Source: Nitrospinales bacterium
GTDB taxonomy: Bacteria > Nitrospinota > Nitrospinia > Nitrospinales > JAJDAT01
Reading direction: 5' to 3'
DNA: 64,000 nt
Assembly (NCBI GenBank): GCA_038154245.1
Contig: JAYOZP010000002.1
Location: forward strand, 50,928 to 114,927
In this document: positions 8,374-45,651 of the stretch, piece after piece
Position numbering within the stretch: the first letter of the stretch is position 1
How the letters are laid out: every line of letters begins with the position of its first letter
The notes under the pieces: generated by a model
Databases searched by the model: none
Seen by the model: only the letters and a program-made list of their open reading frames with translations
What the model was told of the DNA's origin: nothing
Position numbers and translations under genes: made by a program

Positions 8374-8480
8374 TTAAGAGAGTCTCTAATAATTCTTGTT
8401 TTTACTAGTTTGCTGTCGCCTAATCCCTTATTTTAAGGGCTAGGCTCTGGGCAATTTTGAATATTTAGAGGTTCCCTTAA
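8374..8480 (+). repeat. ~106-nt inverted-repeat element, copy A (diverged centre)
   Basis: The ends TTAAGAGAGTCTCTAA ... TTAGAGGTTCCCTTAA are mutually complementary. They match the ends of the copies at 23962, 29582 and 45545. Intergenic, 90 nt past the stop of the MerR-B12 gene. Confidence 0.75.
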
Positions 8481-8570
8481 TTTAAAAAATTAAAAGGAAT
8501 TTAAAATAGGGAAGTTTAATAAAAAATAAACTTTTTAGAGATAAGGGAATAGGGCTAGAGGGGTTTCTAA

Positions 8571-9524
8571 TTAAGATTTAGCGAGTTCTTTATTGAGGTC
8601 TAATAAATTTTGAAAAAATTCTTGAAAATTATTGATTCGTGTAACTCCAGGGACTGAATTGGAATATCCTTTTCCGCCAACAATAATTTTAATTTCCTTT
8701 TTGATTCTTTCCCTAAGATTTGAAATTAATTTAGCGGATTTTTGTTTATCGTAATAACAAGAAACGCCTAAACATAAAATATCGCTGTTTGTTTTTAATA
8801 CTGCCGAAATAATTTCCTCGCATGGAGTATCGGACCCTATAAAAATTACTTTGTATTTGCAGATAGCGGCTAAAGTGGCGGCCATTTGCAACCCTAGATT
8901 GTGATCGTCCCCTGGAAGCGATGTTATTAGAATTTTAGCTCCATCGTTTCTTTCATTAAGCTGACGCCATTTCGAGCCTATAAAATCATACAAACGTTCG
9001 GAAGCAAAATGCTCTTGGGAAATAGAAATTTCTCCTGTTTCCCAACCTCTCCCAATTTTATCTAAAAAAGGAACGGCTAATTGAGTGACAAAACTCAAAC
9101 CACCCATTTTTGCCCATTCTTCAAAAAATCCATCGTCTAAGGTTTGATAAGAAAATTTATGGGCGGCTTCAATCCAACCCTCGATAATTAATTCGCGAGA
9201 ATTTTCGATTTGGGTTTCATTAGTTTTAGAATGTGCTGGAGACGAACTAGGTAATAAAGAACTTATATTGAGCAAATTTTCAATTTCGCTGAGAGAGGCT
9301 TTGGCAAGTTTTCCTGGGCGGTGACCTTCTTTTAGAGCCCGCGCGATTGCTCTTAGACGGGGAACCTCTTCCTTAGAATATCTTCTGTGGCCTGAAGGAA
9401 GTCTAAAGGGTACAGGGGTTCCGTAGCGTTTTTCCCAAACTCTAAGAGTATGAGTACTAATTCCAGTTAAACGGGCGAGTTCGCCAATCGGTAAACCATT
9501 ATCATTTAATGGGGTATCTAACAT
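8571..9524 (-). CDS. MerR-family regulator with C-terminal cobalamin (B12)-binding domain (CarH/LitR-like)
   Basis: 317 aa. N-terminal MerR HTH LPIGELARLTGISTHTLRVWEKRYG. C-terminal B12 motifs GDDHNLG (DxHxxG), ILCLGVS and IIVGGKG. Confidence 0.8.
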   Translation of the reverse strand: MLDTPLNDNGLPIGELARLTGISTHTLRVWEKRYGTPVPFRLPSGHRRYSKEEVPRLRAIARALKEGHRPGKLAKASLSEIENLLNISSLLPSSSPAHSKTNETQIENSRELIIEGWIEAAHKFSYQTLDDGFFEEWAKMGGLSFVTQLAVPFLDKIGRGWETGEISISQEHFASERLYDFIGSKWRQLNERNDGAKILITSLPGDDHNLGLQMAATLAAICKYKVIFIGSDTPCEEIISAVLKTNSDILCLGVSCYYDKQKSAKLISNLRERIKKEIKIIVGGKGYSNSVPGVTRINNFQEFFQNLLDLNKELAKS

Positions 9525-9619
9525 AAAGTCTCTTTTCTGGGCTTAATATAGAAAATTTAGAATAAAAAAGCAAAAAAAGATCGATGATTAGACAAACTAT
9601 TTTTTTTTAAAAAAATAAT

Positions 9620-9648
9620 TTGACATAAATAGCTTTTATTTCTAGAAT
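9620..9648 (+). promoter_or_regulatory. near-consensus sigma70 promoter upstream of the CbiX-like gene
   Basis: TTGACA (9620-9625), 17-nt spacer, TAGAAT (9643-9648). It lies 32 nt upstream of GTG 9680, which is preceded by GAGGA (9666-9670). Confidence 0.5.
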
Positions 9649-9679
9649 TAATACATAAACTTAATGAGGATTAAACATA

Positions 9680-10198
9680 GTGTCAAGATTTGAATCGGTT
9701 ATTTTAGTGGGACATGGCGGTTTACCGGCAGATTGTCCACAGGATGTTGTCTCCAGATTAAAACGTCTGGAAATGGAAAGAAGACGTCGCGGCATTCCCG
9801 CGTCTGAGGAGGAAAAAGAATTAGACCGGAAAGTTAGAGATTGGCCCAGAACACCCGAGTCAGATCCTTATAAGGTTGGTCTTGAAAAGCTTGCTCAGCA
9901 TTTGGCGGAAAAGATGCCGGATACAAAAATAGTAGCCGCCTACAATGAATTTTGCGCTCCAAGTATCGAAGAGGCAGTGGATAATTTAGTTGGAGAGGGC
10001 GTTAAAAGTATTTCTTTGATTTCCTCAATGTTTACGCCGGGAGGATCTCATTCTGATAAAGAAATACCGGAAGATGTGGAAGAGTTACGAAAGAAGTATC
10101 CGGATGTGAATTTTCAATACGCATGGCCCTTTGATTTAAACAAAATCGCCGAATTGATGGCTGGCCATCTAGAGAATTTTAATAATTCAAATTCATAG
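9680..10198 (+). CDS. CbiX/SirB-type sirohydrochlorin chelatase-like protein
   Basis: 172 aa. VILVGHGGLP start and the charged insert RLKRLEMERRRRG...DWPRTPESDPYKVGLE are typical of short CbiX/SirB N-domain proteins. Confidence 0.55.
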   Translation: MSRFESVILVGHGGLPADCPQDVVSRLKRLEMERRRRGIPASEEEKELDRKVRDWPRTPESDPYKVGLEKLAQHLAEKMPDTKIVAAYNEFCAPSIEEAVDNLVGEGVKSISLISSMFTPGGSHSDKEIPEDVEELRKKYPDVNFQYAWPFDLNKIAELMAGHLENFNNSNS

Positions 10199-10226
10199 AA
10201 GGTCTTTTAATTTTATCTCAGGACTT

Positions 10227-10724
10227 ATGATGAAAAAATTAAACTCTTTAAAAGCTTCTTCAATTACTGCGGTTTTTATTATTAGCTTATTGTTTTCGAC
10301 AAATGCTTTTAGCCTTGGGTGGGCGGATCGAGAATGGATCTCTTCTGGATGTCCTTCAAAAATATTGGGCGTTTGGAAAGCAAGAAGCAGTCCCGATAAA
10401 GCCGCTCACAAAATGAAAGTCGCAAAAGGAATAATTTCATTAACAACAAAAGAAGGGACTGAGAAAAAGTTTTTTTACAGAGAATCAAGATTCGTTAAAC
10501 AAGCTCGTTTTTTACAAGTTAGTTTGAGAGAAGGGGGTCCAGATTCCACAAACTCTGCCGTGTGGAAAATAAGACCGCATCTAACTTGGAAACCTGCAAT
10601 GGAAAATTCCGAAATGGCTAAAAAATCGAGTTGTTTGATAAAGGTTTTGCGGTTTAAAAATGAAAAACAAGCTCGCTTTGATAAATATCAAACTTGGGAT
10701 ATTTACGAAAAATTTTCAGATTGA
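10227..10724 (+). CDS. secreted hypothetical protein
   Basis: 165 aa. N-terminal signal peptide (ITAVFIISLLFSTNAFS). No motif recognised. Confidence 0.55.
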   Translation: MMKKLNSLKASSITAVFIISLLFSTNAFSLGWADREWISSGCPSKILGVWKARSSPDKAAHKMKVAKGIISLTTKEGTEKKFFYRESRFVKQARFLQVSLREGGPDSTNSAVWKIRPHLTWKPAMENSEMAKKSSCLIKVLRFKNEKQARFDKYQTWDIYEKFSD

Positions 10725-10872
10725 ATTGATCTAATTTAAAAAACTTAAATGCGACCCATGGGGTCCGGTGAAAAGCTCTGGGGAGCCTGCCAGTTGTTTT
10801 GCTTAAAAAAGCTTCAGTCTGACTGCGATTAAACTGGATAGCCGGATTCGAAAAATTAACTTCGGTAATTTA

Positions 10873-11172
10873 ATGGTTTATGAATGCAAAGTTTACGATA
10901 AGAACGGAAAATTAAAAAAAGAGATTACGCCCGAGGAAATAAAAAAAAATACGGACTCGGATTTTAACGATCAAAAATCAACGAGGCTAGCTAAAAAACG
11001 AATCGCTTCATTTAAAGAAAAGTTAGAAATTTCGAAATCGACAAAATTTTATACAAATAAGTGTATTCAGTGCGGTCAGACTTTTTATCCTAGACAGCAT
11101 TCGACAAAATACTGTTCGCATGAATGCCAAAAAAAATATTATTACGATAATAAAAAGAATTCAAAAGCATAA
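10873..11172 (+). CDS. small Lys-rich protein with C-terminal zinc ribbon
   Basis: 99 aa. CIQCGQTFYPRQHSTKYCSHEC is a CxxC-x15-CxxxC motif. A strong terminator lies downstream. Confidence 0.55.
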   Translation: MVYECKVYDKNGKLKKEITPEEIKKNTDSDFNDQKSTRLAKKRIASFKEKLEISKSTKFYTNKCIQCGQTFYPRQHSTKYCSHECQKKYYYDNKKNSKA

Positions 11173-11248
11173 AACATGTTTTTATTTTCAAAAAACCTAA
11201 TTGAGTTTTGGACGCTTGGTCGAAAGGGGGAAGGCCAGGCTGTTCACC

Positions 11249-11280
11249 GGGGGATTCTTATGAATCCCCCAACTTTTTTT
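11249..11280 (+). terminator. rho-independent terminator
   Basis: GGGGGATTC (11249-11257), loop TTAT, GAATCCCCC (11262-11270), then a run of 7 T (11274-11280). Confidence 0.8.
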
Positions 11281-11393
11281 GGACTAATATTAAGTTTTAA
11301 ATTGAAGTGTAAAACCTGGATTATTTTTTTTGATTAGTTTAGCGCATAAGCTATAAAATTAATTTAATCTAAAATTCAGTCAAATATTGATTT

Positions 11394-11888
11394 ATGAAAC
11401 GACGCCAGAATAAAAGTTTGATTAGGGGTTTAACAATTCTAGTTTTATATGGTGTTTTAGCTTTTCCTTCGGTAGCGGTCTGCGAAGATTGGGAAGATGC
11501 GAGAACCATGATCGAATCTGGAAAGGATTTTGAAAAATCGGGGCAATATGACAAAGCGACCGATGTTTACAAAAAAACGGTCGACCAATTCCCAGACTAT
11601 CCGGACGGTTATTTGCAGCTAGGGTTCGGTCTTCAAGCTTTGAAGAAATTTAATTCAGCCATTGACGCTTATAAAAAAGGTTTGAATTTAAGTCCATATC
11701 ATAAATATGCTGCGGAAGCTTATTATAATATGAGCGTTTCGGCAGACAATATTGGAGACGGCTCTGAAGCGATTGTTTACCTTAAGAAAGCTTTACAAGC
11801 CTATACCGATAGAAATGACTACCCTGGTGTGTTTCAAGCAGGGTCGTATTTAGAAGTTTTGTCAAATAAATACCCTTCAGCCAAATAG
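11394..11888 (+). CDS. TPR-repeat secreted protein
   Basis: 164 aa. Signal-like N-terminus, then TPR-like repeats (YDKATDVYKKTVDQFPDY..., AIDAYKKGLNLSPY...). Confidence 0.6.
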   Translation: MKRRQNKSLIRGLTILVLYGVLAFPSVAVCEDWEDARTMIESGKDFEKSGQYDKATDVYKKTVDQFPDYPDGYLQLGFGLQALKKFNSAIDAYKKGLNLSPYHKYAAEAYYNMSVSADNIGDGSEAIVYLKKALQAYTDRNDYPGVFQAGSYLEVLSNKYPSAK

Positions 11889-12135
11889 AAATTTTAATAC
11901 TTACCTAGTTAGAAAAAACTCCTTTTTTACTTCCACAAAGCGGTTCTAAGTTTTTGTCGCTGTTACAAATTAGTAAGCGCTATAATACTAGGCTTATTTT
12001 TTGAACGTACGGCGATGGATTGTACTAAAATCTATTTTCGCCGCGATTTTTAATTTTTTTCTAAATCATTTGTAAATTATTTCCATTTTAAAGGATGATT
12101 TTGGGATTTTTTCTTAGGTTATTCTGCCAGTTATC

Positions 12136-15333: not shown

Positions 15334-15345
15334 TTTTAAATATTT

Positions 15346-16404: not shown

Positions 16405-16420
16405 AAATCCAGCCTCTCGT

Positions 16421-21963: not shown

Positions 21964-23739
21964 TTAGTGAGAATCCAAACGTTTGAATGCCTTTATCGCT
22001 TCTATTGAAGGTTTTTTGGTTTTGACCGCCTCTTTTAGCTTTTGGATGTAACCATTGCCTCCATATCTATCTAAAATGAGTAGATCTTGAAATAGTAGCA
22101 CTTCGTTAAAAAGAGAAACTAGTTCTTCTTGCGGCATTAGCTCGAGTGATTTTCTATTTGTGAGATTAGGAAAAGCTGAAGGATTTCTAACAATAATATT
22201 TTTTAGAATTTTGATTATTTCTTGCTGAGAATAGTTTTTGGAAGGCTGGGCTTGCTTCATGAAGATACGTTTTTCTAGAACTTTAGGATCGGGAAATATT
22301 GTCCCTTTCTCAAGTTCAATTACGGTACCTTTAATTTTTTTTTGTTTAAGAACTTTTAAGGGAAAAATTCGGTTTGATTCGGATTTAGAGATCAAACCAT
22401 TAGAAGTCTTTCGAAACTTTTTGGTTTTCAGAAATGTTACGCCGTCTTTTATTTCAAGAGTCTCCATTTCGTTTAAGAACCCAGATTTAGGTTCGTAAAA
22501 GCTTCTTTTTCTTCTTAAAAACTGCCCATTGGGATGTAAGGTTGTTGTGGATGATAATTGGAGTTGTCCCGTTTTGATATCATTAACCTTTATTTCTAAT
22601 ATATAACTATCTTTTTGCTTTGTTAATATCCATTTCTCGTTTTTAAGATTAATTTGAGCGGTAAAAGATTCATTGAAATCATTGGGAATTTGTTTTTCTA
22701 AAGTTTTAAGAAATGAATCGCCGTTTAATAACAAGTTTAAATTTAGCGCTTTACTTAAAAGAGCAAGTTTTGGAAGTTCTTTGAGTGGTTTTAATTTTTG
22801 GTAAAGGGTTTGCGCTACAACTTGGGCGCCTTTTTTATTTAAATGACGATCCCATTCTGAAAAAATGTAATCCTTGTCGTCTAACCCAAAGAAACCTTCT
22901 TTAAAAAGATCAACGCAATTGATTTGTCTTGTTAAACAAAATTTATTTAATTTTTCGAAAGCTGAGTTTAAAGGATAACTTTTATTTAGGGAGGTTATAA
23001 TAGGAATCATTGTCATCATAAATGGGATGCCTTTTAATTGGCTAGACATTATTAATAGATCTAAATAAATTTTTTCCATTTCCCAACCGCGGGATTGAAA
23101 AATTCGATTTATACAATCTGAATAGCTAGGTTTAAATCCTAGCTTTTCTCCGAGACGATTCAAACGAAAATTTAAAAATTGATATAGTTTCAATGATTGG
23201 ATTTGATCTTGAAACTTGCCGAAACTCGGAATTATTTTTCTGTCTTCGCTATTACATTTGAATAAAACAGGTTTTGATATGTCGTTTGGGTAAAAACCAA
23301 GTAAAATTAAATCCGGTTTGTAGCGAAACCCGATTCGAAATAACTCGTTCAACTGAGTGTCTGTATTCCAACCTGGTATAGCCATATTTAAAACTTCAAA
23401 CTTAATGAGAGAAGCGTCTTTATTTAATAGATTTTCTAATTTTTTTGGCCAAGTATCTTTTATTTTTAGGATGCCGTGTCCGAATGTTTGTGAATCTCCC
23501 AAAACCAAAATACGAAAAACTTTAAATGGTTTTTCAAAAATATAATCAAAATCCCGAAACCCTTGTTTGTTAAATTTCACATTTTTTTGAATCCAATCTA
23601 AAGGAATTCCCTTTTTAGATTTTGGATTAATGCTTAGGATTGCCTCTATTGCTAATAAGCAAAGTATTATGGAAATGAAACTTAATAATAATTTGAAAAC
23701 GAATCTAGATCTTATAAAGTTTTTAATAATTATTTCCAT
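21964..23739 (-). CDS. membrane-anchored SGNH/GDSL-hydrolase-like protein with uncharacterised C-terminal half
   Basis: 591 aa with an N-terminal TM anchor. FRILVLGDSQTFGHG matches block I (GDS) of SGNH hydrolases. The C-terminal ~250 aa have no motif. Confidence 0.5.
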   Translation of the reverse strand: MEIIIKNFIRSRFVFKLLLSFISIILCLLAIEAILSINPKSKKGIPLDWIQKNVKFNKQGFRDFDYIFEKPFKVFRILVLGDSQTFGHGILKIKDTWPKKLENLLNKDASLIKFEVLNMAIPGWNTDTQLNELFRIGFRYKPDLILLGFYPNDISKPVLFKCNSEDRKIIPSFGKFQDQIQSLKLYQFLNFRLNRLGEKLGFKPSYSDCINRIFQSRGWEMEKIYLDLLIMSSQLKGIPFMMTMIPIITSLNKSYPLNSAFEKLNKFCLTRQINCVDLFKEGFFGLDDKDYIFSEWDRHLNKKGAQVVAQTLYQKLKPLKELPKLALLSKALNLNLLLNGDSFLKTLEKQIPNDFNESFTAQINLKNEKWILTKQKDSYILEIKVNDIKTGQLQLSSTTTLHPNGQFLRRKRSFYEPKSGFLNEMETLEIKDGVTFLKTKKFRKTSNGLISKSESNRIFPLKVLKQKKIKGTVIELEKGTIFPDPKVLEKRIFMKQAQPSKNYSQQEIIKILKNIIVRNPSAFPNLTNRKSLELMPQEELVSLFNEVLLFQDLLILDRYGGNGYIQKLKEAVKTKKPSIEAIKAFKRLDSH

Positions 23740-23961: not shown

Positions 23962-24067
23962 TTAAGTGAGTCTCTAATAATTCGAGATTTTAGCTTGAGG
24001 CAACTCGCTTGCCTTTTGTTTGCAAAGGCAGCTCGTGGCCAAATTCAATTCTTAGAGGTTTCCTTAA
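23962..24067 (+). repeat. ~106-nt inverted-repeat element, copy B
   Basis: 100/106 identical to copy C (29582-29687), same orientation. Ends TTAAGTGAGTCTCTAA ... TTAGAGGTTTCCTTAA. Confidence 0.9.
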
Positions 24068-24137
24068 TTAGTTTGCCTTTTTTATAATTATTTTAGATTC
24101 CCTTTTTATCCTCGAAATTTCTAGTTTTTAATTTTTT

Positions 24138-24680
24138 ATGACAAATGAATATAACGTTTGGTTTAGTTTGTTTAAAGGAAACGTTCCATCTCCAGTTAAG
24201 GTTTTTGAGAAAAGAGACTGGGTTTTGGAGTCAGGTGTCGCTCTTACCGCGTGTATAATCGGCAAAAGCCATAGGATTTGCTTTAGATCTGGATCTGATT
24301 ATTTAACCGAATTTATTGCCTATTCTATGGACAGTTTTTCCTTTGAACCCGTAGATCAGAGATCTTTAAAGCTAGGAGATTCTCTTGATCGCGAGTTTAT
24401 TCATGGTTCGTTATATTATAAAGTTAAAATAGAAGTCGTAGAACAGGTCTATTTAAATTTTGACGAATTTTTAAAAACGATTACTGATATTGACATTTAT
24501 GAAACGATGTTTCGAGAATTTAAAAACCCATTATTGAATTCTAGTAGTCAGCCATTTACTGGAATCGTTATTGCTCCAGATAAGAATCGAATATTTACAG
24601 CTCATACTTATCCTGAAGGAAATTATTCAGTCATTAGTGTTGTTGAGGCGAATGTATTGGATCATGAGTTTGCGTCATGA
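24138..24680 (+). CDS. hypothetical protein (first gene of the psp-associated cluster)
   Basis: 180-aa ORF. Its stop overlaps the next start (ATGA at 24677-24680). No motif recognised. Confidence 0.55.
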   Translation: MTNEYNVWFSLFKGNVPSPVKVFEKRDWVLESGVALTACIIGKSHRICFRSGSDYLTEFIAYSMDSFSFEPVDQRSLKLGDSLDREFIHGSLYYKVKIEVVEQVYLNFDEFLKTITDIDIYETMFREFKNPLLNSSSQPFTGIVIAPDKNRIFTAHTYPEGNYSVISVVEANVLDHEFAS

Positions 24681-25039
24681 TAAAAAGGCTTTTTCAGATT
24701 GCACGATCTAATATTGGACATTATTGGGATAGAAAAAGCTCTGATTTTGAAGAGCCTCCAATAATCGATCAGAGTTCAAGTTGGGGTAAAAATAATAATG
24801 AAACACCCTATGAAAGCGTTAGGGATCCATTGGCGAAGTATTTTGCTAATTTAGAATTGCCAACAAATGCGAATAGAGGAGAAGTCAAAGCTTCCTGGAA
24901 GCGACTGATGAAAAAATATCATCCCGATTTACATTCAGCCGATACTGAAAAAAGAAAAATTGCCACTGAGTTATCGCAGGGGTTAACGGAGGCTTATAAG
25001 ATTTTAGACAAAGAGTTAGCCAAAAGGGAAAACTCTTAA
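24677..25039 (+). CDS. small J-domain (DnaJ-like) protein
   Basis: 120 aa. The C-terminal half is a J domain: DPLAKYFANLELPTNANRGEVKASWKRLMKKYHPDLH...LTEAYKIL, with the HPD tripeptide. Confidence 0.8.
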   Translation: MIKRLFQIARSNIGHYWDRKSSDFEEPPIIDQSSSWGKNNNETPYESVRDPLAKYFANLELPTNANRGEVKASWKRLMKKYHPDLHSADTEKRKIATELSQGLTEAYKILDKELAKRENS

Positions 25040-25151
25040 AATGTAATTAAAATAAAATCAATCTGAATAACTTATTTTATCTAAGACAAGAATTCCATTA
25101 TATTGGAGACTTCTTAAATTTAATCGGCCTCGAAGCCGACAAGGAGGCAAA

Positions 25152-25544
25152 ATGTCGAATTTTGAGACAGTTAAAGGATACTTATTGGAAATGGGATTTT
25201 CATTTGAAGTCGAAAATTCTGAAGAAGAACTAGTGGTAGTTAACGATCCTGATAGGGGAATACAAAATTTAGTAATAGACTGTGAAGATCCGATTGTTAT
25301 ATTAGAACAAGTCATTTTAGTTTTAGAAAACGACTCGTTAGAAACCTATAAAAGAATACTGCAAATCAATCGCTCTTTGGTGCATGGCGCATTTTGTTTG
25401 AATGAAGAAGGTAATGTTTTATTGTTTCGAGACACGTTGCAACTAGCTAATCTAGACTTAAATGAATTAGAGGGCAGTATCGATGCGCTTAGCTTGGCGG
25501 TAGCCGAAAATGGAACAGAGCTTTTATCTTTTGTGGGAAAATAA
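25152..25544 (+). CDS. YbjN/YjfI-like small acidic protein (PspA-associated type, tentative)
   Basis: 130 aa, preceded by AAGGAGG. Its size, acidity and position directly upstream of a PspA gene mirror E. coli yjfI-yjfJ. Homology not verified. Confidence 0.4.
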   Translation: MSNFETVKGYLLEMGFSFEVENSEEELVVVNDPDRGIQNLVIDCEDPIVILEQVILVLENDSLETYKRILQINRSLVHGAFCLNEEGNVLLFRDTLQLANLDLNELEGSIDALSLAVAENGTELLSFVGK

Positions 25545-25600
25545 AAATAATAAGTAAAAATGATATTAAAAAATCCTTTTTTTGAGAAAGGAGCTTAGTG

Positions 25601-26311
25601 ATGGCTGGATTATTTTCACGAATATTTCGATTAAGTAAAGCGGAAGCTCATTCAATAGTGGACGCTATAGAAGATCCTATTAAGATGACAGAGCAGGGCA
25701 TTAGAGATTTGAAGAAAGATTTACAAGAATCAATGCAAAGCTTAGCTCAGGTAAAAGGCGTTGTTATGCGCTTGCGCAACGACGCTGAAAACCAAAAGAA
25801 AATGTCTGTTTCAATGGAGCGAAAAGCGATGGCTTTATTGCAAAGCGCTCAGGAAGGGAAAGTAGATCCAGGCGAAGCTGATCGGTTAGCGTCTGAGGCT
25901 TTAACTCGCAAAGAAGACGCCGGTCAAAAAGCTTTAAGCCTTTCTAAAGACTTACAGAGCCAGGAAGAAATGGCAAATCAACTTCAGAAAAATGTTGAGA
26001 AATTGCGTTCTACAATTCAAAGGTATGAAAACGACTTAATTACTCTTCGCGCTCGAGCTAAAACAGCCGCTGCAACTCGTAAATTAAACGAACAGATTGC
26101 AAAAGTAGATTCGGGCGGTACAATCGCTATGCTCGAAAAAATGAAGGCAAAGGTTGAGGAAGACGAGTCGCTTGCAAAAGCCTATGGAGAAATTGCCGAT
26201 ACCGGAGAAGATCTTGACGCAAAAATTGATAAAGCGTTACAAGGCGGTTCTGGTAATCTTCCAAAATCGGACGACCTTGCGGCATTGAAAGCCAAAATGG
26301 GAATTTCTTGA
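25601..26311 (+). CDS. pspA: PspA/IM30 (phage shock protein A / Vipp1 family)
   Basis: MAGLFSRIFRLSKAEAHSIVDAIEDPIKMTEQGIRDLKKDL... is the canonical PspA N-terminus, followed by a long coiled coil. ATG 25601 is preferred over the track's GTG 25598 (AAAGGAG ends 7 nt upstream). Confidence 0.9.
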   Translation: MAGLFSRIFRLSKAEAHSIVDAIEDPIKMTEQGIRDLKKDLQESMQSLAQVKGVVMRLRNDAENQKKMSVSMERKAMALLQSAQEGKVDPGEADRLASEALTRKEDAGQKALSLSKDLQSQEEMANQLQKNVEKLRSTIQRYENDLITLRARAKTAAATRKLNEQIAKVDSGGTIAMLEKMKAKVEEDESLAKAYGEIADTGEDLDAKIDKALQGGSGNLPKSDDLAALKAKMGIS

Positions 26312-26312
26312 T

Positions 26313-26864
26313 ATGGCCTGGAATTTTTTTAAGAAAGATAAAGACAAAGAAGATCCAGAAATGGATCTGAATGATTTAGTTCTTTCTAAAATGAAGCCGG
26401 GGTTTCTTGTTGATTATGATATGAAAACATATCAAGTAATTGGGAAAAATTACTATCAATGGGATGAAGGTGGAAGAACTCTTGAATGGGAACTCAAACA
26501 GGGTAGCGAAGTTCTATATTTAGAAAGAGAAGAAGAAGATGGAGAAGTATCTTGGTCGCTTTCTAAAAAGTTAGCTATTGGTGTACTCGAGGGAAATATT
26601 GCCGATCATATAATTGAAAATGAAGATCCACCAGAAACAGTTATTATGGATGGAGTTTCCTTTTATTTTGAGGAAGATGATATTGGAACCTATCACAAAG
26701 GAGATAGCCCAAGAGGACTTCAATTTGTAGTTTGGGATTACTCCGACGACCGTCAAGAAAAATCTTTGTCAATTGAGCAATGGGGGGAAGCTAAATTCGA
26801 TGTTACAGTTGGATTTGAAGTAGAGGAATATCAATTTTCTAATATTTTACCAGGGGCTAATTAA
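26313..26864 (+). CDS. DUF4178-like protein (tentative)
   Basis: 183 aa, starting 1 nt after the pspA stop. The segment FLVDYDMKTYQVIGKNYYQWDEGGRTLEWELK resembles DUF4178 repeats as I remember them. Confidence 0.45.
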   Translation: MAWNFFKKDKDKEDPEMDLNDLVLSKMKPGFLVDYDMKTYQVIGKNYYQWDEGGRTLEWELKQGSEVLYLEREEEDGEVSWSLSKKLAIGVLEGNIADHIIENEDPPETVIMDGVSFYFEEDDIGTYHKGDSPRGLQFVVWDYSDDRQEKSLSIEQWGEAKFDVTVGFEVEEYQFSNILPGAN

Positions 26865-26926
26865 GGTCTTTAAAAAGAGGATTTCAAAGCTAGAATTGTT
26901 TTAAAAATGGCGATGTATAGGCGGGG

Positions 26927-28978
26927 CTAGTCTTGTTTTTCTCTAGTTTTTTCCAAGTTTTTCATTGCATTTTTTGTACTTGGATGGTCAAGACCTAATG
27001 TATTTTGAAATAAACCAAGAGCTTTCTCTAAGAATGTTTCAGCAAGAGAATAGTTCCCCATCTTTAAATAAAGAATTCCAATGTTGTTTATCGAGGAAGC
27101 TATTATTGGATCTTGTTTGTCGAAAGCTTTTTCTCTAATTTTTAACGCTTCATTTAAAACAAATTCTGCATCTTTAAAACGGCTTTGTTTGAGATAAAGC
27201 TCGGCTAGATTAGTTTTTGCCGAAGCGATTTCAGGATGTTCTTTACCTAAAAGATTTTCATGAATTTCCAAAGCGTCTGTAAAAAGAGATTCTGCCTCCT
27301 CAAAACGTTCTTGAGTTTTATATAGCAGCGCTAAATTATTTAGCGAGTGCACTACATCTAAATGTTCGTCTCCTAAAAACTTCTCAAAAATTTCCAAAGC
27401 CTCTTTGTATGCTTGTTCAGCTTTTTTGTACTGTCCAATTTCCCTATAGAAATTACCTAGATTGTCCAAAGAAATTGCGACATCAGGATGATCGCTAAAA
27501 TAGATTTTTTTCCATAAACTGACAGTTTCTTGATAAATTTTTTCGGCTTTTTCATGTTGTTGCCTTACCTTATTATTCCAGGCAAGGTTGCTTAGGGTTG
27601 ACGCAACCAGAGCATGTTCATCGCCATAGCAATGGCGATGGACGGAATATGCTTTTTGAAAAAAGTTTTCCGCTTCCGCATAGTCCCCTTGATGATTTAG
27701 ATAATAGCCCACATCGTTACATAGACGCGCTGTTTGGGGGATTTGCAATTTAAATTTATTAATCCAATTTAACATGGTGCGAGCGCTAGGAATTAATTCT
27801 TCGCAAATAGACCAGGAGGTAAAATCTGGATCTGGAAACGCAGATTCAAGAGTTTTTAAAGATTTCTCCGCCCAAAACTCTGGCCTTTCTAGTTTATCTC
27901 TTACAGCTTGTTGAATGGGATTACTCATTTTAAAGCTTTGCTCTCCAATGTTTTGACTCAAGAATGAGTATCGACAAACAATATTAATGACCTTATTCCA
28001 ATGTTGGTTCCAATCGGTTTTTTCGTTTTGGTAGTCTTCTGAAAAATCGATTTCCTCGTTTTCAAGAAAAATTTCTTTGGGAATAAAACGAGAATCAAAG
28101 AAAGAACACAACCGAATCAATTCAACCGCTTCGGGACAATCTTGTTGAATATGATTTAGAGATAAATTGACCGCTACAGATAAAAACTTTGGGTAGTTTT
28201 GGTTTGTTTCTAATTGCGGGAGTATCTCTTTATCTTCGGTCTTAAACAGTAATAAATATTCTATCAGCGTAATTTTTGTTTCTCGAATATACGAACCAAC
28301 TATTTCAATTGCCGCATGAGATCCGTTTAGTAAATCGTAAATTTCGCTTGCTATATTGACAACCTCTTTGGAAGCTTTATTTATATCTTCATCATCGTCA
28401 ATAATGTTCGCTTTTTTTAGAAGATATAAAACTCCTTTGTCTTTTACATTTTGAGTTGGATGGATAGATGATAGATCTGAATTTTTAGTTTTATGGGGTG
28501 TTTTTTTATCTATTTGGTTTTTTGGAGGTTTTTGTTTGGTAAGAAAACAATGGAGTTTTTCGTAATCCGACTCTAAAACGAATTGTTTTGATTCTCGAAA
28601 AATTGGAGGAATAAAGTCAGTGTCATTCTTCGAAACCAGTATAAGAGCAAATTTTTTATTTTTTATTTTGCTATGAATATTTTGCCGATTGAGGATTGGG
28701 CCTTTCCAATTTTGATCTAGATCTTTTCCATCATATTTTGCGCTATTAGAAAATTCGCTTAAATAAAATTCTGTGCAAATAATAAGTATAAAATGTGATT
28801 CATCTACTTTTTTTTGCGTCCACTTCGGCCAGCCAATTTTAGGAGCTTCATTTTCAAATTGATCTATCCAACAATCGATTCCATCGTAGCGAAGTTGATC
28901 TGATAAGGCTAGAACGTGGTCCTTATGATCTTTCGAATCATGACTATAGCTGATGAAGACTTTTACCGAATTTGGCAT
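26927..28978 (-). CDS. TIR-like domain / ARC (winged-helix) remnant / TPR-repeat protein lacking a P-loop NTPase core
   Basis: 683 aa. N-terminus VFISYSHDSKDHKDHVLALSDQLRYDGIDCWIDQFE...FILIICTEFY is TIR/SEFIR-like. The middle has NB-ARC C-terminal landmarks (LNGSHAAIEIVGSYI resembling GLPLA, TLIEYLLLF, LSLNHIQQDCPEAVELIRLCSFF). The C-terminus has 5-6 KLC-type TPRs (SLNNLALLYKTQERFEEAESLF...). No GxxxxGK[ST] anywhere. Confidence 0.7.
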   Translation of the reverse strand: MPNSVKVFISYSHDSKDHKDHVLALSDQLRYDGIDCWIDQFENEAPKIGWPKWTQKKVDESHFILIICTEFYLSEFSNSAKYDGKDLDQNWKGPILNRQNIHSKIKNKKFALILVSKNDTDFIPPIFRESKQFVLESDYEKLHCFLTKQKPPKNQIDKKTPHKTKNSDLSSIHPTQNVKDKGVLYLLKKANIIDDDEDINKASKEVVNIASEIYDLLNGSHAAIEIVGSYIRETKITLIEYLLLFKTEDKEILPQLETNQNYPKFLSVAVNLSLNHIQQDCPEAVELIRLCSFFDSRFIPKEIFLENEEIDFSEDYQNEKTDWNQHWNKVINIVCRYSFLSQNIGEQSFKMSNPIQQAVRDKLERPEFWAEKSLKTLESAFPDPDFTSWSICEELIPSARTMLNWINKFKLQIPQTARLCNDVGYYLNHQGDYAEAENFFQKAYSVHRHCYGDEHALVASTLSNLAWNNKVRQQHEKAEKIYQETVSLWKKIYFSDHPDVAISLDNLGNFYREIGQYKKAEQAYKEALEIFEKFLGDEHLDVVHSLNNLALLYKTQERFEEAESLFTDALEIHENLLGKEHPEIASAKTNLAELYLKQSRFKDAEFVLNEALKIREKAFDKQDPIIASSINNIGILYLKMGNYSLAETFLEKALGLFQNTLGLDHPSTKNAMKNLEKTREKQD

Positions 28979-29581
28979 TAGGAGTTAGGAAAGCTTTTTG
29001 AAAAATATTTCCAAGATACGAAAACTCTTTAAATAAATCAACGGCAAATTGTTACTGGCATATGAAATTGGAAAGCCATAAAGTATTTTTTTAATTTGAG
29101 TAGAAAAATTTATTTGAATCGATAAGCTGATCATTTTATGTCTAACAAAGGTATTTATATTTACGAAAATAGCCTTTAAGAAATGGGAGCAGTTTGTTTC
29201 GAAAATTGATTATATAAAATAAAGAATAAATAAGTGTCGAGATTGCCTTTCATATTACAATGTATTAAAGGGTAAAACCAAAGCGCGTTTGGGGGCAGTT
29301 TAGGCACACTTTGGAAAAATGACCAACCCACCAGTTGTATTGAATGATGCGCTGAAATTAATGAGTTCTCTCAAGGGAGGCTAAAAATTAAGGGGGCAAA
29401 TTGCTTTGCGTGTAGGAGGGACAAACGATTGCGAATATTATTTTTCAGCTCATACCGTTATTGGATAAAATGCCAGTCCTAATCAAGAAGAAATTCATAT
29501 GAATCGAAATGGCGAATCATTTGACGAATTCCTTTAGTTTTTTTCGAAAAGTTATTGAAAAAGGGGATGTGTTCTTAATAA

Positions 29582-29687
29582 TTAAGGGGGTCTCTAATAA
29601 TTCGAAATTTTAGCTTGAGGCAACTCGCTTGCCTTTTGTTTGCAAAGGCAGCTCGTAGCCAAATTCAATTTTTAGAGGTTCCCTTAA
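29582..29687 (+). repeat. ~106-nt inverted-repeat element, copy C
   Basis: TTAAGGGGGTCTCTAA (29582-29597) pairs with TTAGAGGTTCCCTTAA (29672-29687): 13 Watson-Crick plus 3 G-T pairs. 20 nt from the integrase stop. Confidence 0.9.
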
Positions 29688-29707
29688 GTTTGATAGAAAA
29701 GAAATTT

Positions 29708-30559
29708 TTATGCAGATTTTTTTGACGCTTCTGAATCGGGATTTGTCATTTTTGCATAGAAGTTGGTGCTCTCGCGCCTTGAGTGTCCCATGAGGTTTTG
29801 AACTGTAGGAACTTTTGCTCCATGTTGTAGTAAAAAAGCGGCAAAAGAGTGACGTAAAGAATGGGGAGTAGCATTTTTCTCTACACCCGATATTTCTAGG
29901 GCCGCTTTAAAATATTTTGCGAAAGCGCGAGTAGTTAATTTGCCCCCTCGTTCGCTAGGAAATAAATAATCCCCGGGTTCTTTTTTACCAATTTGACGGA
30001 GAATCGCGTCGGACAAGCTTCTAGAAAAAATAGTGGTTCTTCCTTTTCGTCGCTCGTTTTGTCCTTTTACGAATAGATTGTTCGTTTTCAAATTTATGTC
30101 TTTTACGAGAACTTCTACAAGCTCAGAAACTCGAAGTCCAGCGCTGTAAGCTAATTCAATCATTAACCTGTGTTTTAAGTTTTCAGCCGATAAAGCTATT
30201 CTGCGGACTTCTTCAAGAGTTAGTAGAACTGGAGTTCTTTCTTTCTTTTGCGGTCGTTCTAATTCATTCAACGGAAATTTTTGCCCAAACACTTCTACCC
30301 ATAGAAAACGTAAAGCGTTAATTGCTTGGTCGATGGTAGATCGGGATTTTTTTGTAGAATTTAGATGCCTTAGATAATCTTCCAAATCGCGATTAGATGC
30401 CTCATGTGGGTCCCGTGGCAAAATAAAAAAGAAAAAATTACGAAGTTGCCCCAAATAAGCTTTAATAGTTTGATCTCGATATTTCCGAATATTTAATCTT
30501 TCTTCAATAACTTCATATGGCTTGGAGGCAAACTGAGGAAAAGGAAGCGATGCGTCCAT
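29708..30559 (-). CDS. tyrosine recombinase / phage-type integrase (XerC/D-like)
   Basis: 283 aa. Catalytic landmarks AGLRVSEL (R), HSLRHSFA (HxxR), LMGHSRRESTNFYAKM (H...Y). SAM-like N-domain. Confidence 0.85.
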   Translation of the reverse strand: MDASLPFPQFASKPYEVIEERLNIRKYRDQTIKAYLGQLRNFFFFILPRDPHEASNRDLEDYLRHLNSTKKSRSTIDQAINALRFLWVEVFGQKFPLNELERPQKKERTPVLLTLEEVRRIALSAENLKHRLMIELAYSAGLRVSELVEVLVKDINLKTNNLFVKGQNERRKGRTTIFSRSLSDAILRQIGKKEPGDYLFPSERGGKLTTRAFAKYFKAALEISGVEKNATPHSLRHSFAAFLLQHGAKVPTVQNLMGHSRRESTNFYAKMTNPDSEASKKSA

Positions 30560-36241: not shown

Positions 36242-36264
36242 GTTAATTTTAGTTTGTTGTTTTT

Positions 36265-37098: not shown

Positions 37099-37178
37099 TT
37101 AATAAAAGCTTATTAGAATTGATAAAGAAAAGAAATTTGTAGTATTTAGAGAAAGTAAGCATTTGGTAAAATTGACGA

Positions 37179-37973: not shown

Positions 37974-38072
37974 GTACCGATTATAGGAACTGGTCTCCCT
38001 TTTTTCAATATTTTTATTACTCTATTTAAAACATATATTTTGTATTCTCATAATTCTGAGTTTTGAAAATTC

Positions 38073-38669
38073 ATGTTTAAATTTGAAAAAGAAGCTCAAA
38101 TCAAGGGTTTTGATTTTATTGCGGGGGTCGACGAAGCTGGAAGAGGGCCACTGGCTGGTCCCGTCGTGGCCGCCGCCGTGATTTTAAAAGATTTTGAAAC
38201 AATTCCAGAGCTTCGCGATTCTAAGCAAATGTCTCCAAATCAAAGAGATAGAGTATTTGATACGATCAAAAAATCTGCTTTAGGTTTTGGTATTGGAGTT
38301 ATCGATGTATCCGTAATTGACAAAATTAATATTTTACAAGCCGCATTGCTAGCTATGAAAATAGCTACGGAAAAACTTCCCATGCCGCCCGACTTTATCC
38401 TTGTAGACGGTAATCGCACCTTTGATTTTCCAAAAGAACAAAAAGCGGTAATTAAAGGAGATCAGTTAAGTCAATCGATCGCAGCCGCCTCTGTGTTGGC
38501 TAAAGTAACGAGAGATCGTATCATGGTCGAGTACCATAAAAAATATCCACAGTATGGTTTTGACAAACACAAAGGATATGGGACTAAATTACATAAGGAA
38601 AAGATTCAAGAGTTTAAACCTTGTCCAATTCATCGAAAAACGTTTAAAGGAGTTCGAGAATTTTTGTAG
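38073..38669 (+). CDS. rnhB: ribonuclease HII
   Basis: 198 aa. GVDEAGRGPLAGPVVAAAV and ASVLAKVTRD motifs. Confidence 0.9.
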   Translation: MFKFEKEAQIKGFDFIAGVDEAGRGPLAGPVVAAAVILKDFETIPELRDSKQMSPNQRDRVFDTIKKSALGFGIGVIDVSVIDKINILQAALLAMKIATEKLPMPPDFILVDGNRTFDFPKEQKAVIKGDQLSQSIAAASVLAKVTRDRIMVEYHKKYPQYGFDKHKGYGTKLHKEKIQEFKPCPIHRKTFKGVREFL

Positions 38670-38786
38670 CCTAATCCGATTAGATTTTTAAATACTTAAT
38701 TAGGTTGTTTGAGCGCTTTAGTTTAGGATGTAGATTAGCGACGCCGTTTAAGATAAAATTTCATTGTCTTACGCGAATAAAAAAAT

Positions 38787-40523: not shown

Positions 40524-40565
40524 TCGAAAAAAACTGAAAATAAATCTCCAACAGTTTTTTGCTAG

Positions 40566-43136: not shown

Positions 43137-43162
43137 TTTATTATAAATTTTTTGGTCGGAGT

Positions 43163-45007
43163 TTAGATTTTAATTTGGACTGCTTCTAGTATATTTTTTG
43201 CTAGAGATTTAGTTATTCCCGGAAGTTGGACTAGCTCGTCGGGCGATGCGTTTCGAATATTTTCCAAGCTTCCAAACTTTTTTAGCAAAGCTAATCTACG
43301 TTTTTTACCTATTCCAGAGATAGACTCAAGAGGAGAAGTTAGTGTTTTCGTTCCTCTTAATTTTCGGTGATAAGTTATGGCAAATCTGTGCGATTCATCG
43401 CGAACTCTTTGCAAAAGTAGTCGAGCGGGCGAATGTTCTTTAAAAAAAATAGATTGTTTTTTTTGAGGTGAAAAAACTTCATCAGTTCTTAAATCGTTGC
43501 GATTTTTTCCTTTAGCGATGCACGCTAGATCAACTTTATCCTCTAAACTTAAGTCGCGTAGTACTTGCAATCCGGCATTCAGATGTCCTTTACCACCGTC
43601 TATTAAGATTAAGTCTGGAAAAGGCTTTTCTTCTGCTATTAAACGCCCGTATCTTCTAATTAAAACTTCGCGTAGCATTGCGTAATCGTCAATTCCTTCT
43701 ACCTCTTTAATCTTAAATCGACGATAATTTGCTTTGTCGGCTTTTCCTTCATTGAAACAAACCATTGAACCAACGGCGTATGTTCCGGAAATATTTGAAA
43801 TATCAAAACTTTCAATAATTTGGGGTAAACTTTTTAAAGAAAGTTGGGTTTGAAGCTCTTCAAGCATTAAAACTCGGGAGTTGTCGTCATCTAACTCGTT
43901 TTTTAGAGCTAATTTGGCGTTTGAAGCGGCCATTACGACTAAGTTCCGTTTTTTTCCTATCGTAGGAGATTCCAAAATAACTCGACTGCTTTTTTTTTCT
44001 GATAACCAATCGCTTAATAGACTTTGGTCTTCTACAGGATGGGGCAATAGAATTTCTCTGGGAAGTATAGGTTCGTCTGCATAGTATTGTTTCAGAAACG
44101 AGGTTAAGATTTCATTATCTTCAAATTCACTTTGGCTTTTTAAGCGTACGTTTTTTTCTCCAATTAATTTACCCTCTCGAATGATTAATACTTGAACCAG
44201 GGCGCAATCACCCTCTCTGTAGTATGCGATAGCGTCGTGGTTTTCCTGAGAGGTGGATACAACTTTTTGTTTATCAAAAATGGTTTTAACGGCTGCAATC
44301 TTGTCTCTATATACGGCGGCTTTCTCGTATTCTGTAGCTTCTGAAGCGAAATGCATTTTTGTTTTTAGGCTTTCGATTAATTCTCCATTTTTTCCTTTAA
44401 GAAATAATTGAACGTCTTTAACAATTTTAGAATAATCTTCCGGGGTTACTTTTGCCGAACAGGGAGCGAGACAACGTCCAATTTGATAATTTAGGCACGG
44501 ACGGCGTTTTTCTGTTCCGTCCAAGTCGTCTTTACTTTGCCGTAGAGGAAAAATTTTATAAATTAATCTAATGGTCTCCCGTACTTCCTTGACCATTGTG
44601 TATGGACCAAAATATGCAGAAGAATCTTTTTTGATTTTCCGGACTATTTCTAATCGTGGGTAGGTTTCTCCTAATGTTAAACGTATATAAGGGTAATGTT
44701 TATCGTCCTTTAATAGAACGTTGTAACGTGGTTGGTATTTTTTAACAAAATTACTCTCGAGGATTAGAGCTTCGCGCTCGGATTCAGTTGTTAATACTTT
44801 TATATCTTTGATTTTTGAAATCATTGCCCTGGAACGGGGCATAAAGTTTCGAGAATCTTGAAAGTATGAGCGAACTCGAGAAAACAAAGATTTTGCTTTT
44901 CCAATATAAAGAACTTCTCCCTTCCCATCCTTCATCATATAAATGCCGGGCAGTTTAGGAAGCGTATCAAGAATTTCGTTGATGCGGTCGGCCATTGCTT
45001 TGCGCAT
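43163..45007 (-). CDS. uvrC: excinuclease ABC subunit C
   Basis: 614 aa. GIY-YIG N-terminus (PGIYMMKD...VLYIGKAKSL), UvrBC domain, C-terminal HhH2. Confidence 0.95.
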   Translation of the reverse strand: MRKAMADRINEILDTLPKLPGIYMMKDGKGEVLYIGKAKSLFSRVRSYFQDSRNFMPRSRAMISKIKDIKVLTTESEREALILESNFVKKYQPRYNVLLKDDKHYPYIRLTLGETYPRLEIVRKIKKDSSAYFGPYTMVKEVRETIRLIYKIFPLRQSKDDLDGTEKRRPCLNYQIGRCLAPCSAKVTPEDYSKIVKDVQLFLKGKNGELIESLKTKMHFASEATEYEKAAVYRDKIAAVKTIFDKQKVVSTSQENHDAIAYYREGDCALVQVLIIREGKLIGEKNVRLKSQSEFEDNEILTSFLKQYYADEPILPREILLPHPVEDQSLLSDWLSEKKSSRVILESPTIGKKRNLVVMAASNAKLALKNELDDDNSRVLMLEELQTQLSLKSLPQIIESFDISNISGTYAVGSMVCFNEGKADKANYRRFKIKEVEGIDDYAMLREVLIRRYGRLIAEEKPFPDLILIDGGKGHLNAGLQVLRDLSLEDKVDLACIAKGKNRNDLRTDEVFSPQKKQSIFFKEHSPARLLLQRVRDESHRFAITYHRKLRGTKTLTSPLESISGIGKKRRLALLKKFGSLENIRNASPDELVQLPGITKSLAKNILEAVQIKI

Positions 45008-45100
45008 TGCCTCAAATGAGTTTTTGTAACTATGTTAAAAACTAAAGATCAGATTTTTTGGGATGCCTATTGGTTCTTGCAAATACTTTTTAAATCGTAT

Positions 45101-45418
45101 TTAGGAAAATGATTTTTTAGGACTCCAGCCTCTGTATCTCATGCAACCTAGAAAGGGAGCATGCTCGCCTCTAAACCCGTATTCTCTACCTTGGATAATG
45201 CTGCTGTATTTAACTTTCTCCTTTAAGCAAGTCTCTAAATTTTTTTCAAACGTTTCTTTTGGCTTAGAGCCTTCAACGCTTTTAAAGTCTGAATAATTCC
45301 AACTTGGGCCGCATCCTGAAAAAACGATTAAAGAAAGAAATAATAATGAGATTTTTTTGAAATTAATAAACTTATGAAAGTGAAATAAGAAATGTTTAGA
45401 GTTTTTTTGAAGGCGCAT
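45101..45418 (-). CDS. small lipoprotein, hypothetical
   Basis: 105 aa with lipobox IVFSGC. Confidence 0.55.
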   Translation of the reverse strand: MRLQKNSKHFLFHFHKFINFKKISLLFLSLIVFSGCGPSWNYSDFKSVEGSKPKETFEKNLETCLKEKVKYSSIIQGREYGFRGEHAPFLGCMRYRGWSPKKSFS

Positions 45419-45544
45419 CTTTTTTACCGATTAAAGTTCGTGAAAAGTTATTGAATATTATAATCTAAATTGGGTTTTATGAGTTTGCCTGGAAAAAGAA
45501 ATGGCAATCAAGATTAATGGTTTGGCATAAATAGATTTTATTAA

Positions 45545-45651
45545 ATAAAGGGTATCTCTAAGAATTCGATATTTTTACTTTAGGCAACTCGCAGTCCCCC
45601 ATTTTATAAGGTTTGCTCGCGGGCATAAACAATTTTTAGAGGTCCCCTTAA
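45545..45651 (+). repeat. ~106-nt inverted-repeat element, copy D (diverged)
   Basis: TAAAGGGTATCTCTAAGAATTCGA...AGGCAACTCGC...GCTCGCGGGC...TTTTTAGAGGTCCCCTTAA shares its ends and inner boxes with copies B and C. Same orientation. Confidence 0.7.

Follow-up and report, generated by a model that had tools for sequence, protein, structure and literature searches.

Within the 64,000-nt stretch of Nitrospinales DNA analyzed here (the window), four copies of a short inverted repeat lie between genes on the same strand, raising the question of whether they are small structured RNAs, as a preliminary description proposed, or copies of a mobile element. All four were found at the coordinates, and in the single orientation, that had been described (SF1, SF2 and SF3 denote subfamilies):

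8374-8480, plus strand: MITE copy A, SF3-like; TTAA target duplication at 8374-8377 and 8477-8480; element proper 8378-8476, with ends GAGAGTCTCTAA...TTAGAGGTTCCC; flanked by minus-strand ORFs 7922-8263 and 8571-9524.
23962-24067, plus strand: MITE copy B, SF1; TTAA target duplication at 23962-23965 and 24064-24067; element proper 23966-24063; in the divergent spacer between ORF 21964-23739 (minus) and ORF 24138-24680 (plus).
29582-29687, plus strand: MITE copy C, SF1; TTAA target duplication at 29582-29585 and 29684-29687; element proper 29586-29683; 20 nt past the stop of minus-strand ORF 29708-30559 and adjoining a decayed AhpD/CMD-like gene remnant.
45546-45651, plus strand: MITE copy D, SF2; flanks TAAA at 45546-45549 and TTAA at 45648-45651; element proper 45550-45647; in the divergent spacer between ORF 45101-45418 (minus) and ORF 45814-48165 (plus).

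Allowing up to three mismatches, we observed nine matches of the 16-nt terminus in the window versus 1.58 ± 1.24 in shuffled sequence, and eight of the nine are ends of copies A to D. The common inner boxes and hairpin-forming centers reported for the copies are present, and the TTAA reported at both borders of three of them holds for A, B and C, with D bordered by TAAA on its left side and by TTAA on its right. No ORF of at least 90 aa overlaps the window copies, and the reported lack of a transposase gene in the window was borne out.

Collectively, our data indicate that these repeats are very probably members of a non-autonomous MITE family of ~98 bp that uses the ends of an IS5-type insertion sequence (IS) and inserts at TTAA-like sites. 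A genome-wide count, which the preliminary description had proposed, returned at least 117 complete copies in the genome under study (G000), distributed over the three subfamilies, with further copies truncated at contig ends. The element measures 98 bp plus a 4-bp target duplication, usually TTAA, and carries imperfect terminal inverted repeats (TIRs) of 16-17 nt, with the family ends GGGNNYCTCTAAWAAT ... ATTTTTAGAGRTYCCC. SF3, to which copy A belongs, is the largest subfamily, and 16 copies in G000 share at least 92% identity with copy C, an indication of a recent burst. We used 109 copies for the counts of target duplications, end pairing and placement. TIR positions 1-3, 7-12 and 14-17 are paired in 61-95% of these, and 108 of them are intergenic, compared with only 24% of TTAA sites (p ~ 1e-65); the types of spacer are occupied in proportion to their summed length. 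Among the features listed for MITEs (PMC10969869, section 2.1), short size (<500 bp) without transposase coding, TIRs, target duplications that decay with age and dispersed polymorphic copies are found in this family.

The suggestion of a MITE with TTAA target duplication gained support from the flanks and from comparison of spacers with congeners (G001, G003 and G004), in addition to the copy number and the IS5-family termini described below. Identical 4-mers flank 70 of the 109 copies, while the next-outer 4-mers, taken as a control, are identical in only one. Where the identical flanks are not TTAA (nine cases: TTTA three times, TAAA and TTAT twice each, TCAA and TATC once each), all are direct and none is inverted. 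The orthologous spacers of G001 and G003 lack copies A and D, and those of G001 and G004 lack copy B; at the site of copy A, G001 has 10 nt in place of the 106 nt of G000. The congeners are only ~80% identical to G000, so absence was judged per spacer and not base for base. Each of the four congeners nevertheless carries the family elsewhere in its genome.

Closer inspection of the contig ends of G000 revealed that 56 of them (26 + 30) run into two related termini of an IS, TTAA|GAGGACCTCTAAAAATC and TTAA|AGGAATCTCTAAAAACA, so that the IS interior is unassembled. A complete IS of 1.3 kb is present in G003 (CAZMZH010000043.1, 'uncultured Nitrospinota bacterium', L025:991-2284). Its left inverted repeat (IRL), GGGAACCTCTAAAAAT, is identical at 16 of 16 positions to the right end of SF1, and its subterminal sequences are homologous to the contig-end termini of G000. 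The 346-aa ORF of this IS reaches 278 bits on NF033581, against a cut-off of 140, and matches Pfam DUF772 (PF05598) and DDE_Tnp_1 (PF01609). Relatives of the IS occur across many phyla, with GGGCAYCTCTAAAAA as their common terminus; their target duplications are 4 bp long and A/T-rich, often TTAA (TTAA, TTAT, TAGT, AAAA and TTTA were observed), and the flanks of the IS ends in G000 are TTAA-like. A match to a known IS family, which the preliminary description had named beforehand as speaking against its RNA reading, was thus found in these IS5-family termini.

The difference between the left and right ends of the MITE mirrors that between IRL and IRR of the parent IS. MITE and IS are alike over only about 16 bases at their ends, and subterminal homology beyond the 16-nt TIR was not significant (1 of 24 comparisons at p = 0.008), which argues that the MITE is not a simple internal-deletion derivative. 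Searches of the assembled G000 with PF01609 and NF033581 gave no match and the IS interior is missing from the assembly, so that an intact co-resident transposase gene is something we infer rather than see. A search of G000 for MITE-like end pairs 300-4000 bp apart, as expected of a full IS, gave noise only; a pattern search of 120 Nitrospinota genomes with IS end 1 returned G000 only, and an exact-pattern scan of metagenome contigs with the IS end sequence gave no match.

Judging from the shared termini and the shared length of the target duplication, the mobilizing enzyme is presumably the transposase of the IS that carries them, and the IS copies in G000 are presumably intact. In the mechanism that we propose, the MITE termini would be bound and cleaved in the manner of the ends of an IS5-family IS of the DUF772 and DDE_Tnp_1, NF033581 type, with about 28 copies of this parent IS predicted in G000, and transposase supplied in trans would most likely excise or copy the MITE. 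Insertion would occur at A/T-rich tetranucleotides, preferably TTAA, with duplication of those 4 bp. Copies are kept almost only in intergenic DNA and undergo near-neutral decay. The long hairpin follows from the palindromic layout of the DNA and forms equally well on either strand, and the terminal G-T wobbles probably represent inherited differences between the two IS ends as opposed to an adaptation at the RNA level.

Stem statistics were drawn from consensus MFE structures with cell counts instead of RNAalifold, which returned almost no structure on the whole-family and subfamily alignments. The ratio of transitions to transversions is 2.08 at paired sites versus 1.24 at unpaired sites; this difference, which resembled a tolerance of wobble pairs, disappeared at G/C sites once sites were split by base (~2.7 both paired and unpaired). 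At A/T sites transversions are about half as frequent when paired, which fits a mild stem constraint. As a separate observation, the oldest subfamily exhibits 19 compensated double stem substitutions versus 10.5 expected, a hint at some constraint on the hairpin.

Given that host roles have been reported for other MITEs (PMC10969869, PMC2229807), some copies may have been co-opted as terminators, insulators or mRNA-stabilizing hairpins, with the hairpin under selection, a reading that is compatible with a MITE origin but that we consider unlikely. SF1 copies contain a match to a terminator-like consensus on their plus strand, the stems of SF3 change at a lower rate than its loops (0.121 vs 0.180 substitutions per site), and compensated changes are in excess in SF3. 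However, the terminator match is a consensus match with a weak T-tract, SF1 and SF2 display no stem constraint, and the copies have no preference for gene orientation or spacer type. The absence of window copies A, B and D from the congeners further argues that no conserved function is tied to their sites.

Under the preliminary proposal, the family would consist of small structured RNA genes, or of RNA elements specific to one strand, with a plus-strand transcript that folds by means of G-U pairs; this reading is highly improbable in light of the following observations. The 16-nt ends of copy C do pair as claimed, with 13 Watson-Crick and three G-T pairs, so that pairing of its plus strand is complete once G-U is allowed; the same claim for the terminal stem in general stands for copy C alone, since the other copies have A.C at position 2 (A), T.C at position 2 (B) and T.C at position 4 (D), and position 13, which falls just within the stretch that had been chosen, is a T.T mismatch in nearly every copy. 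Folding is stronger than in shuffled controls (about -21 to -26 versus -15 to -17 kcal/mol), the subfamily centers differ in sequence and yet all form hairpins, and compensated double changes are slightly in excess (37 observed versus 25.4 expected), all of which is in keeping with an RNA. However, the predicted fold energies of the plus and minus strands are about equal (SF1 -24.5 vs -24.9, SF2 -20.9 vs -24.7 and SF3 -26.0 vs -24.7 kcal/mol), and private one-sided changes are symmetric, producing G.U on the plus strand in 137 cases and on the minus strand in 133. The strand-specific G-U signal that had been claimed likewise vanishes in SF3, where 78 wobbles are of the minus-strand-only kind versus 73 of the plus-strand kind, and the SF3 ends carry A.C oppositions on the plus strand.

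Substitution density in SF1 and SF2 is about equal at paired and unpaired sites. Orientation relative to genes had been named beforehand as a test of the RNA reading, and both orientations occur: next to co-directional flanking genes, 25 copies are sense and 30 antisense. No family matched in the Rfam search that had also been suggested, whether the Rfam 15 covariance models were run on the whole window at gathering thresholds, or in an E-value scan of copy C only (window positions 29540-29730), where the sole match was U11 at E = 0.37, a chance hit. With both gene orientations, equal strand stability, symmetric wobbles and no Rfam match, the claim of a transcribed, structured, strand-specific RNA was not supported, and the ends and flanks of the repeats are IS termini and target duplications. 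The MITE family is ordinary selfish DNA, not a structured RNA gene.

Hardly tenable at all is an assignment to the REP/REPIN elements, which a RAYT (Y1/HUH) transposase mobilizes, or to a Correia-like type that duplicates TA. The repeats do resemble such elements in their intergenic location, palindromic form, high copy number and capacity for hairpins; however, their 4-bp direct flanks (TATC/TATC, TCAA/TCAA) fit neither a TA duplication nor duplication-free REP insertion, their ends coincide with the termini of a DDE element of the IS5 family, and the assembled genome (91.7% complete) has no Y1_Tnp (PF01797) match.

One observation stands against a simple MITE model, namely the co-orientation of neighboring copies, which the model does not predict. 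Among pairs of adjacent copies separated by less than 60 kb, 50 of 69 across three genomes have the same orientation, above chance (46 of 65 with the window excluded), while pairs at least 60 kb apart look random (5 of 13). Co-oriented neighbors often belong to different subfamilies. Unbiased scans of congener contigs gave 15 of 23 co-oriented pairs for G004 and 7 of 13 for G003, and replaced counts from match lists, which had overstated co-orientation in the congeners (12 of 13 for G003). The single orientation noted for the four window copies points to a real but modest regional co-orientation, unrelated to the direction of transcription.

Several candidate causes of co-orientation were rejected. 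The direction of flanking genes and the orientation of the nearest IS are unrelated to it, and GC skew, AT skew, coding strand and k-mer polarity were likewise dismissed. Local hopping was discarded, as adjacent copies are no more alike than pairs drawn at random, and co-orientation is just as frequent in pairs that join two subfamilies. A tentative explanation, about which we remain rather doubtful, is that a polarity of the chromosome, acting regionally over ~60 kb or less and independent of gene direction, replication-associated GC skew and the orientation of the nearest IS, determines the orientation in which MITEs insert or are retained. If true, this would imply either that IS5-type transposition includes an undescribed step that fixes orientation or that the chromosome has a polar feature so far unrecognized, and regional co-orientation is the sole part of these results that could matter beyond bookkeeping.

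The MITE family accounts for more than 100 intergenic repeats in G000 and, together with the parent IS, explains at least 62 of the 298 contig ends of the assembly (56 in IS termini and at least six inside MITE copies). It should be masked before these Nitrospinota genomes are searched for small RNAs or regulatory motifs. As the searchable literature yielded no account of MITEs from Nitrospina or Nitrospinota, the family appears to be a familiar kind of element that is itself undescribed.

Among known systems, IS5-family elements of the NF033581 type, the nearest being the 1.3-kb IS of G003, resemble the MITE in the terminal 16 bases and in a 4-bp A/T-rich duplication with preference for TTAA, and occur in the same genus; the two MITE ends differ from each other the way the two IS ends do. 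The MITE differs from the G003 IS in its size of 98 bp and its lack of a gene, with the likeness ending after ~16 bases. The family prototype, IS5 of E. coli, generates a 4-bp duplication at YTAR. Eukaryotic, TTAA-specific piggyBac-type transposons also insert at TTAA and duplicate it, but this is a resemblance only, as the matching autonomous element here is the IS5-family IS; a PF13843 search of the genome for a piggyBac-like origin gave no match, with a control that was uninformative for this search.

The Correia/NEMIS elements of Neisseria, RUP of S. pneumoniae and ERIC of enterobacteria (PMC2229807, PMC10969869) are similarly ~100-150 bp long, form a stem-loop over the whole element, and are intergenic, high-copy and divided into subfamilies. 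Unlike the 4-bp duplication here, Correia and RUP duplicate TA, and their parent transposases are either different or unknown; for these families there are published records of transcription, of processing by RNase and of promoter activity (PMC2229807, PMC10969869). MITEAba12 of Acinetobacter baumannii (PMC6382973) differs in its 9-bp target duplication, its parent IS and its phylum, and its transposition was seen experimentally whereas that of the Nitrospinota MITE is deduced. As here, however, MITEAba12 is AT-rich and ~100 bp long, has imperfect TIRs of 16 bp and is identical to the co-resident IS (ISAba12) within the TIRs only, its target duplication has the length of that of the IS and is intact in some copies only, and the parent IS was assigned by the same logic (PMC6382973).

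The preliminary description placed four ~106-nt repeats in the window, and we confirmed all of them at their coordinates and on the + strand:

8374-8480, + strand: copy A, subfamily SF3, bounded by TTAA on both sides
23962-24067, + strand: copy B, subfamily SF1, bounded by TTAA on both sides
29582-29687, + strand: copy C, subfamily SF1, bounded by TTAA on both sides
45545/6-45651, + strand: copy D, subfamily SF2, bounded by TAAA and TTAA

When the 16-nt terminus was searched with up to 3 mismatches, the window yielded 9 matches versus 1.58 +/- 1.24 in shuffled sequence; all but one of the nine are ends of copies A-D. An nhmmer profile built from the four copies then identified 124 non-overlapping matches, 117 of them complete, in the genome's own assembly (G000; 4.77 Mb, 149 contigs, 38% G+C), in which the window corresponds to C2:50928-114927 and several contigs stop within copies. 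Three subfamilies can be told apart. Copies B and C belong to SF1, which has 16 members at least 92% identical to copy C; copy D belongs to SF2, with ~35-40 members, and copy A to the more diverged SF3, with ~40-50. Each of the other four species in the genus has many copies; beyond the genus, only weak matches were observed, in 3 of the 115 other Nitrospinota genomes searched. Outside the window, nested and tandem insertions occur: at C25:3899-4096 an SF3 copy has an SF2 copy inserted at its internal TTAA, one junction showing a small deletion, and at C2:25168-25387 two like-oriented copies from different subfamilies are separated by 12 nt. The SF1 copies carry a + strand terminator-like sequence at window 23997-24025 and 29617-29645, GAGGCAA-CTCGC-TTGCCTT followed by TTGTTTGC, which is a consensus match only and would fold as an alternative to the central hairpin.

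Inspection of the 4-mers flanking the GGG...CCC core showed that 70 of the 109 copies have identical pairs (TTAA in 61), compared to 1 of 109 for the next-outer 4-mers used as a control. The nine identical non-TTAA pairs (TTTA, TAAA, TTAT, TCAA, TATC) are all direct repeats and never inverted, indicating that TTAA is the duplicated target rather than part of the inverted repeat. In orthologous congener spacers, whose flanks are ~80% identical, copy A is absent from G001 and G003, copy B from G001 and G004, and copy D from G001 and G003. These direct 4-bp duplications and empty sites bear out the suggestion, also offered in the preliminary description, of a MITE with a TTAA target duplication. 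All but one of the 109 copies are intergenic, versus only 24% of TTAA sites, and the numbers of copies in co-directional, convergent and divergent spacers follow the total length of each spacer type.

Where copy C lies, the congeners carry an intact AhpD/carboxymuconolactone-decarboxylase-like ORF (~180 aa, same place in G001, G003 and G004). In G000 no more than a stop-riddled remnant of it is left (window 29230-29581; ...GTNDCEYYFSAHTVIG*...), which has lost the 3' part of the gene and has copy C at the break point. We rejected the possibility that copies B and C border a mobile island: the 5.6-kb segment between them (window 23962-29687) keeps its position and order in G001, G003 and G004 at ~80% identity, B is absent in G001 and G004 and none of the three has a MITE at the C site, so the two copies do not delimit such an island.

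The terminal motif also recurs outside MITE copies at G000 contig ends, 26 of which run into TTAA followed by GAGGACCTCTAAAAATCGGAATAAATTTTT... and 30 into TTAA followed by AGGAATCTCTAAAAACAGGTTAAAAAG... These termini are the two ends of one insertion sequence (IS) of ~28 copies that short-read assembly did not cross. The 56 ends, of 298 in total, stop 45-55 nt inside the IS terminus (75 nt at the right end of C26), for example at C26:43207-43281, C11:65071-65124 and C5:1-52, all outside the window; at least six more stop inside MITE copies, and the IS/MITE system thus accounts for at least 62 of the 298. The IS interior is absent from the G000 assembly and was not recovered from other Nitrospinota genomes or from metagenome contigs. 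A complete 1.3-kb homologue was found in congener G003 (locus L025:991-2284), with ends GGGAACCTCTAAAAAT ... ATTTTTAGAGGTCACC, flanks TTAC and TTAA that differ by one base, and subterminal sequences that align with both G000 contig-end termini. The 346-aa ORF of this homologue reaches 278 bits against NCBIfam NF033581 'IS5 family transposase' (cut-off 140), and Pfam recognises DUF772 and DDE_Tnp_1 in it. The left end of this IS is identical to the SF1 right end at 16/16 positions, other MITE-end/IS-end pairs have 10-15 of 16 bases in common, and no similarity extends further inward. The left end of the G003 IS provides the last ~20 codons and the stop of a 310-aa ORF (L025:120-1052), at whose 3' end the IS is located. 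Related transposases (45-75% identity) are found across Nitrospinales, Nitrospirales, cyanobacteria, Bacteroidota, Clostridia and further groups, with Nitrospirales, Pseudanabaena, Ekhidna, Chlorobiaceae, Ruminococcaceae and others among loci L031-L108. Their IS5-type elements terminate in the same sequence, GGGCAYCTCTAAAAA, and are flanked by 4-bp duplications that are A/T-rich and in many cases TTAA; they thus form a single, widespread clade of ISs whose ends are very conserved. Collectively, the target duplications, the IS termini at contig ends and the complete element in G003 identify the repeats as an IS5-type MITE family of an ordinary kind that duplicates TTAA. The family itself is apparently undescribed so far, and we found no paper linking Nitrospina with MITEs.

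The preliminary description had preferred a transcribed, strand-specific structured RNA, an interpretation that our analyses did not support. Its claim of fully paired ends holds for copy C, with 13 Watson-Crick and 3 G-T pairs in the 16-nt ends; copies A, B and D each have one non-wobble opposition on the + strand (A.C in A; T.C in B and D), and a T.T mismatch at element position 13 is found in nearly all copies. Rfam returned no match in the whole window at gathering thresholds and a single chance match (E = 0.37) in an E-value scan of the copy C region. Folded as RNA, SF1 averages -24.5 kcal/mol on the + strand and -24.9 on the - strand, SF2 -20.9 and -24.7, and SF3 -26.0 and -24.7; either strand is well below its shuffled controls, as a DNA palindrome should be. 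The terminal stem contains two + strand wobbles in SF1, one wobble and one mismatch in SF2, and one + strand and two - strand wobbles in SF3 (73 and 78, respectively, counted over SF3 cells). The left and right MITE ends differ in the way that the two IS ends do (C/T at position 6, A/G at position 2), so the apparent G-U compatibility is inherited. Private departures from Watson-Crick consensus pairs gave 137 + strand and 133 - strand wobbles (p = 0.86), and copies between co-directional genes comprise 25 in sense and 30 in antisense orientation, no subfamily being biased. In SF1 and SF2, paired and unpaired sites have the same substitution density; stems of SF3 have a somewhat lower one. Compensated double changes are in excess (37 observed versus 25.4 expected under within-stem shuffling, reached in 7 of 1000 shuffles), and SF3 alone contributes significantly (19 versus 10.5). 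This weak, strand-symmetric signal agrees better with selection acting on master copies, or with correction templated by the palindrome, than with a one-strand RNA. No RAYT gene is present in the G000 assembly.

The shared orientation of the window copies proved to be more than a 1-in-8 coincidence, as adjacent copies on the same G000 contig agree in 33 of 46 pairs and contig-level orientation imbalance is 46 versus 27.8 +/- 5.3 (P = 0.0006). Family-profile scans of G004 (1.17 Mb of sequence) and G003 (1.2 Mb) gave 15/23 and 7/13 co-oriented pairs, making 55/82 for the three genomes pooled (p = 0.003): 50/69 for pairs less than 60 kb apart (p = 0.0002) and 5/13 for pairs at 60 kb or more. With the four window copies left out, the pooled values are 51/78 overall and 46/65 below 60 kb. 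The effect is weak in G003 and is carried by a few dense clusters (G000:C1 7-57 kb, C2 25-96 kb, C14 19-27 kb; G004:C14 265-395 kb); co-oriented neighbours within 60 kb, often across subfamilies, were also noted on G000 C8 and G003:C10. Regional co-orientation is an observation of moderate strength. Flanking gene direction, AT skew, regional coding strand, k-mer polarity and orientation of the nearest IS showed no link to it. GC skew was likewise rejected: the element + strand falls on the G-rich strand 47 versus 54 times in G000 and 8 versus 18 in G004 after gene-strand correction, and 5 versus 10 in G003 (raw contig skew, hand tally), and orientation flips on G004:C14 without a skew flip. 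Local hopping was rejected because cross-subfamily neighbours are as often co-oriented (17/24) as same-subfamily ones (16/22) and adjacent copies resemble each other no more than randomly chosen pairs do.

The features of the G000 family agree with those described for prokaryotic MITEs in general (PMC10969869). In MITEAba12 and ISAba12, identity is confined to the 16-bp terminal inverted repeats and the target duplications match in length (PMC6382973); here too, MITE-IS identity is limited to the 16-nt ends and the duplications are of the same length.
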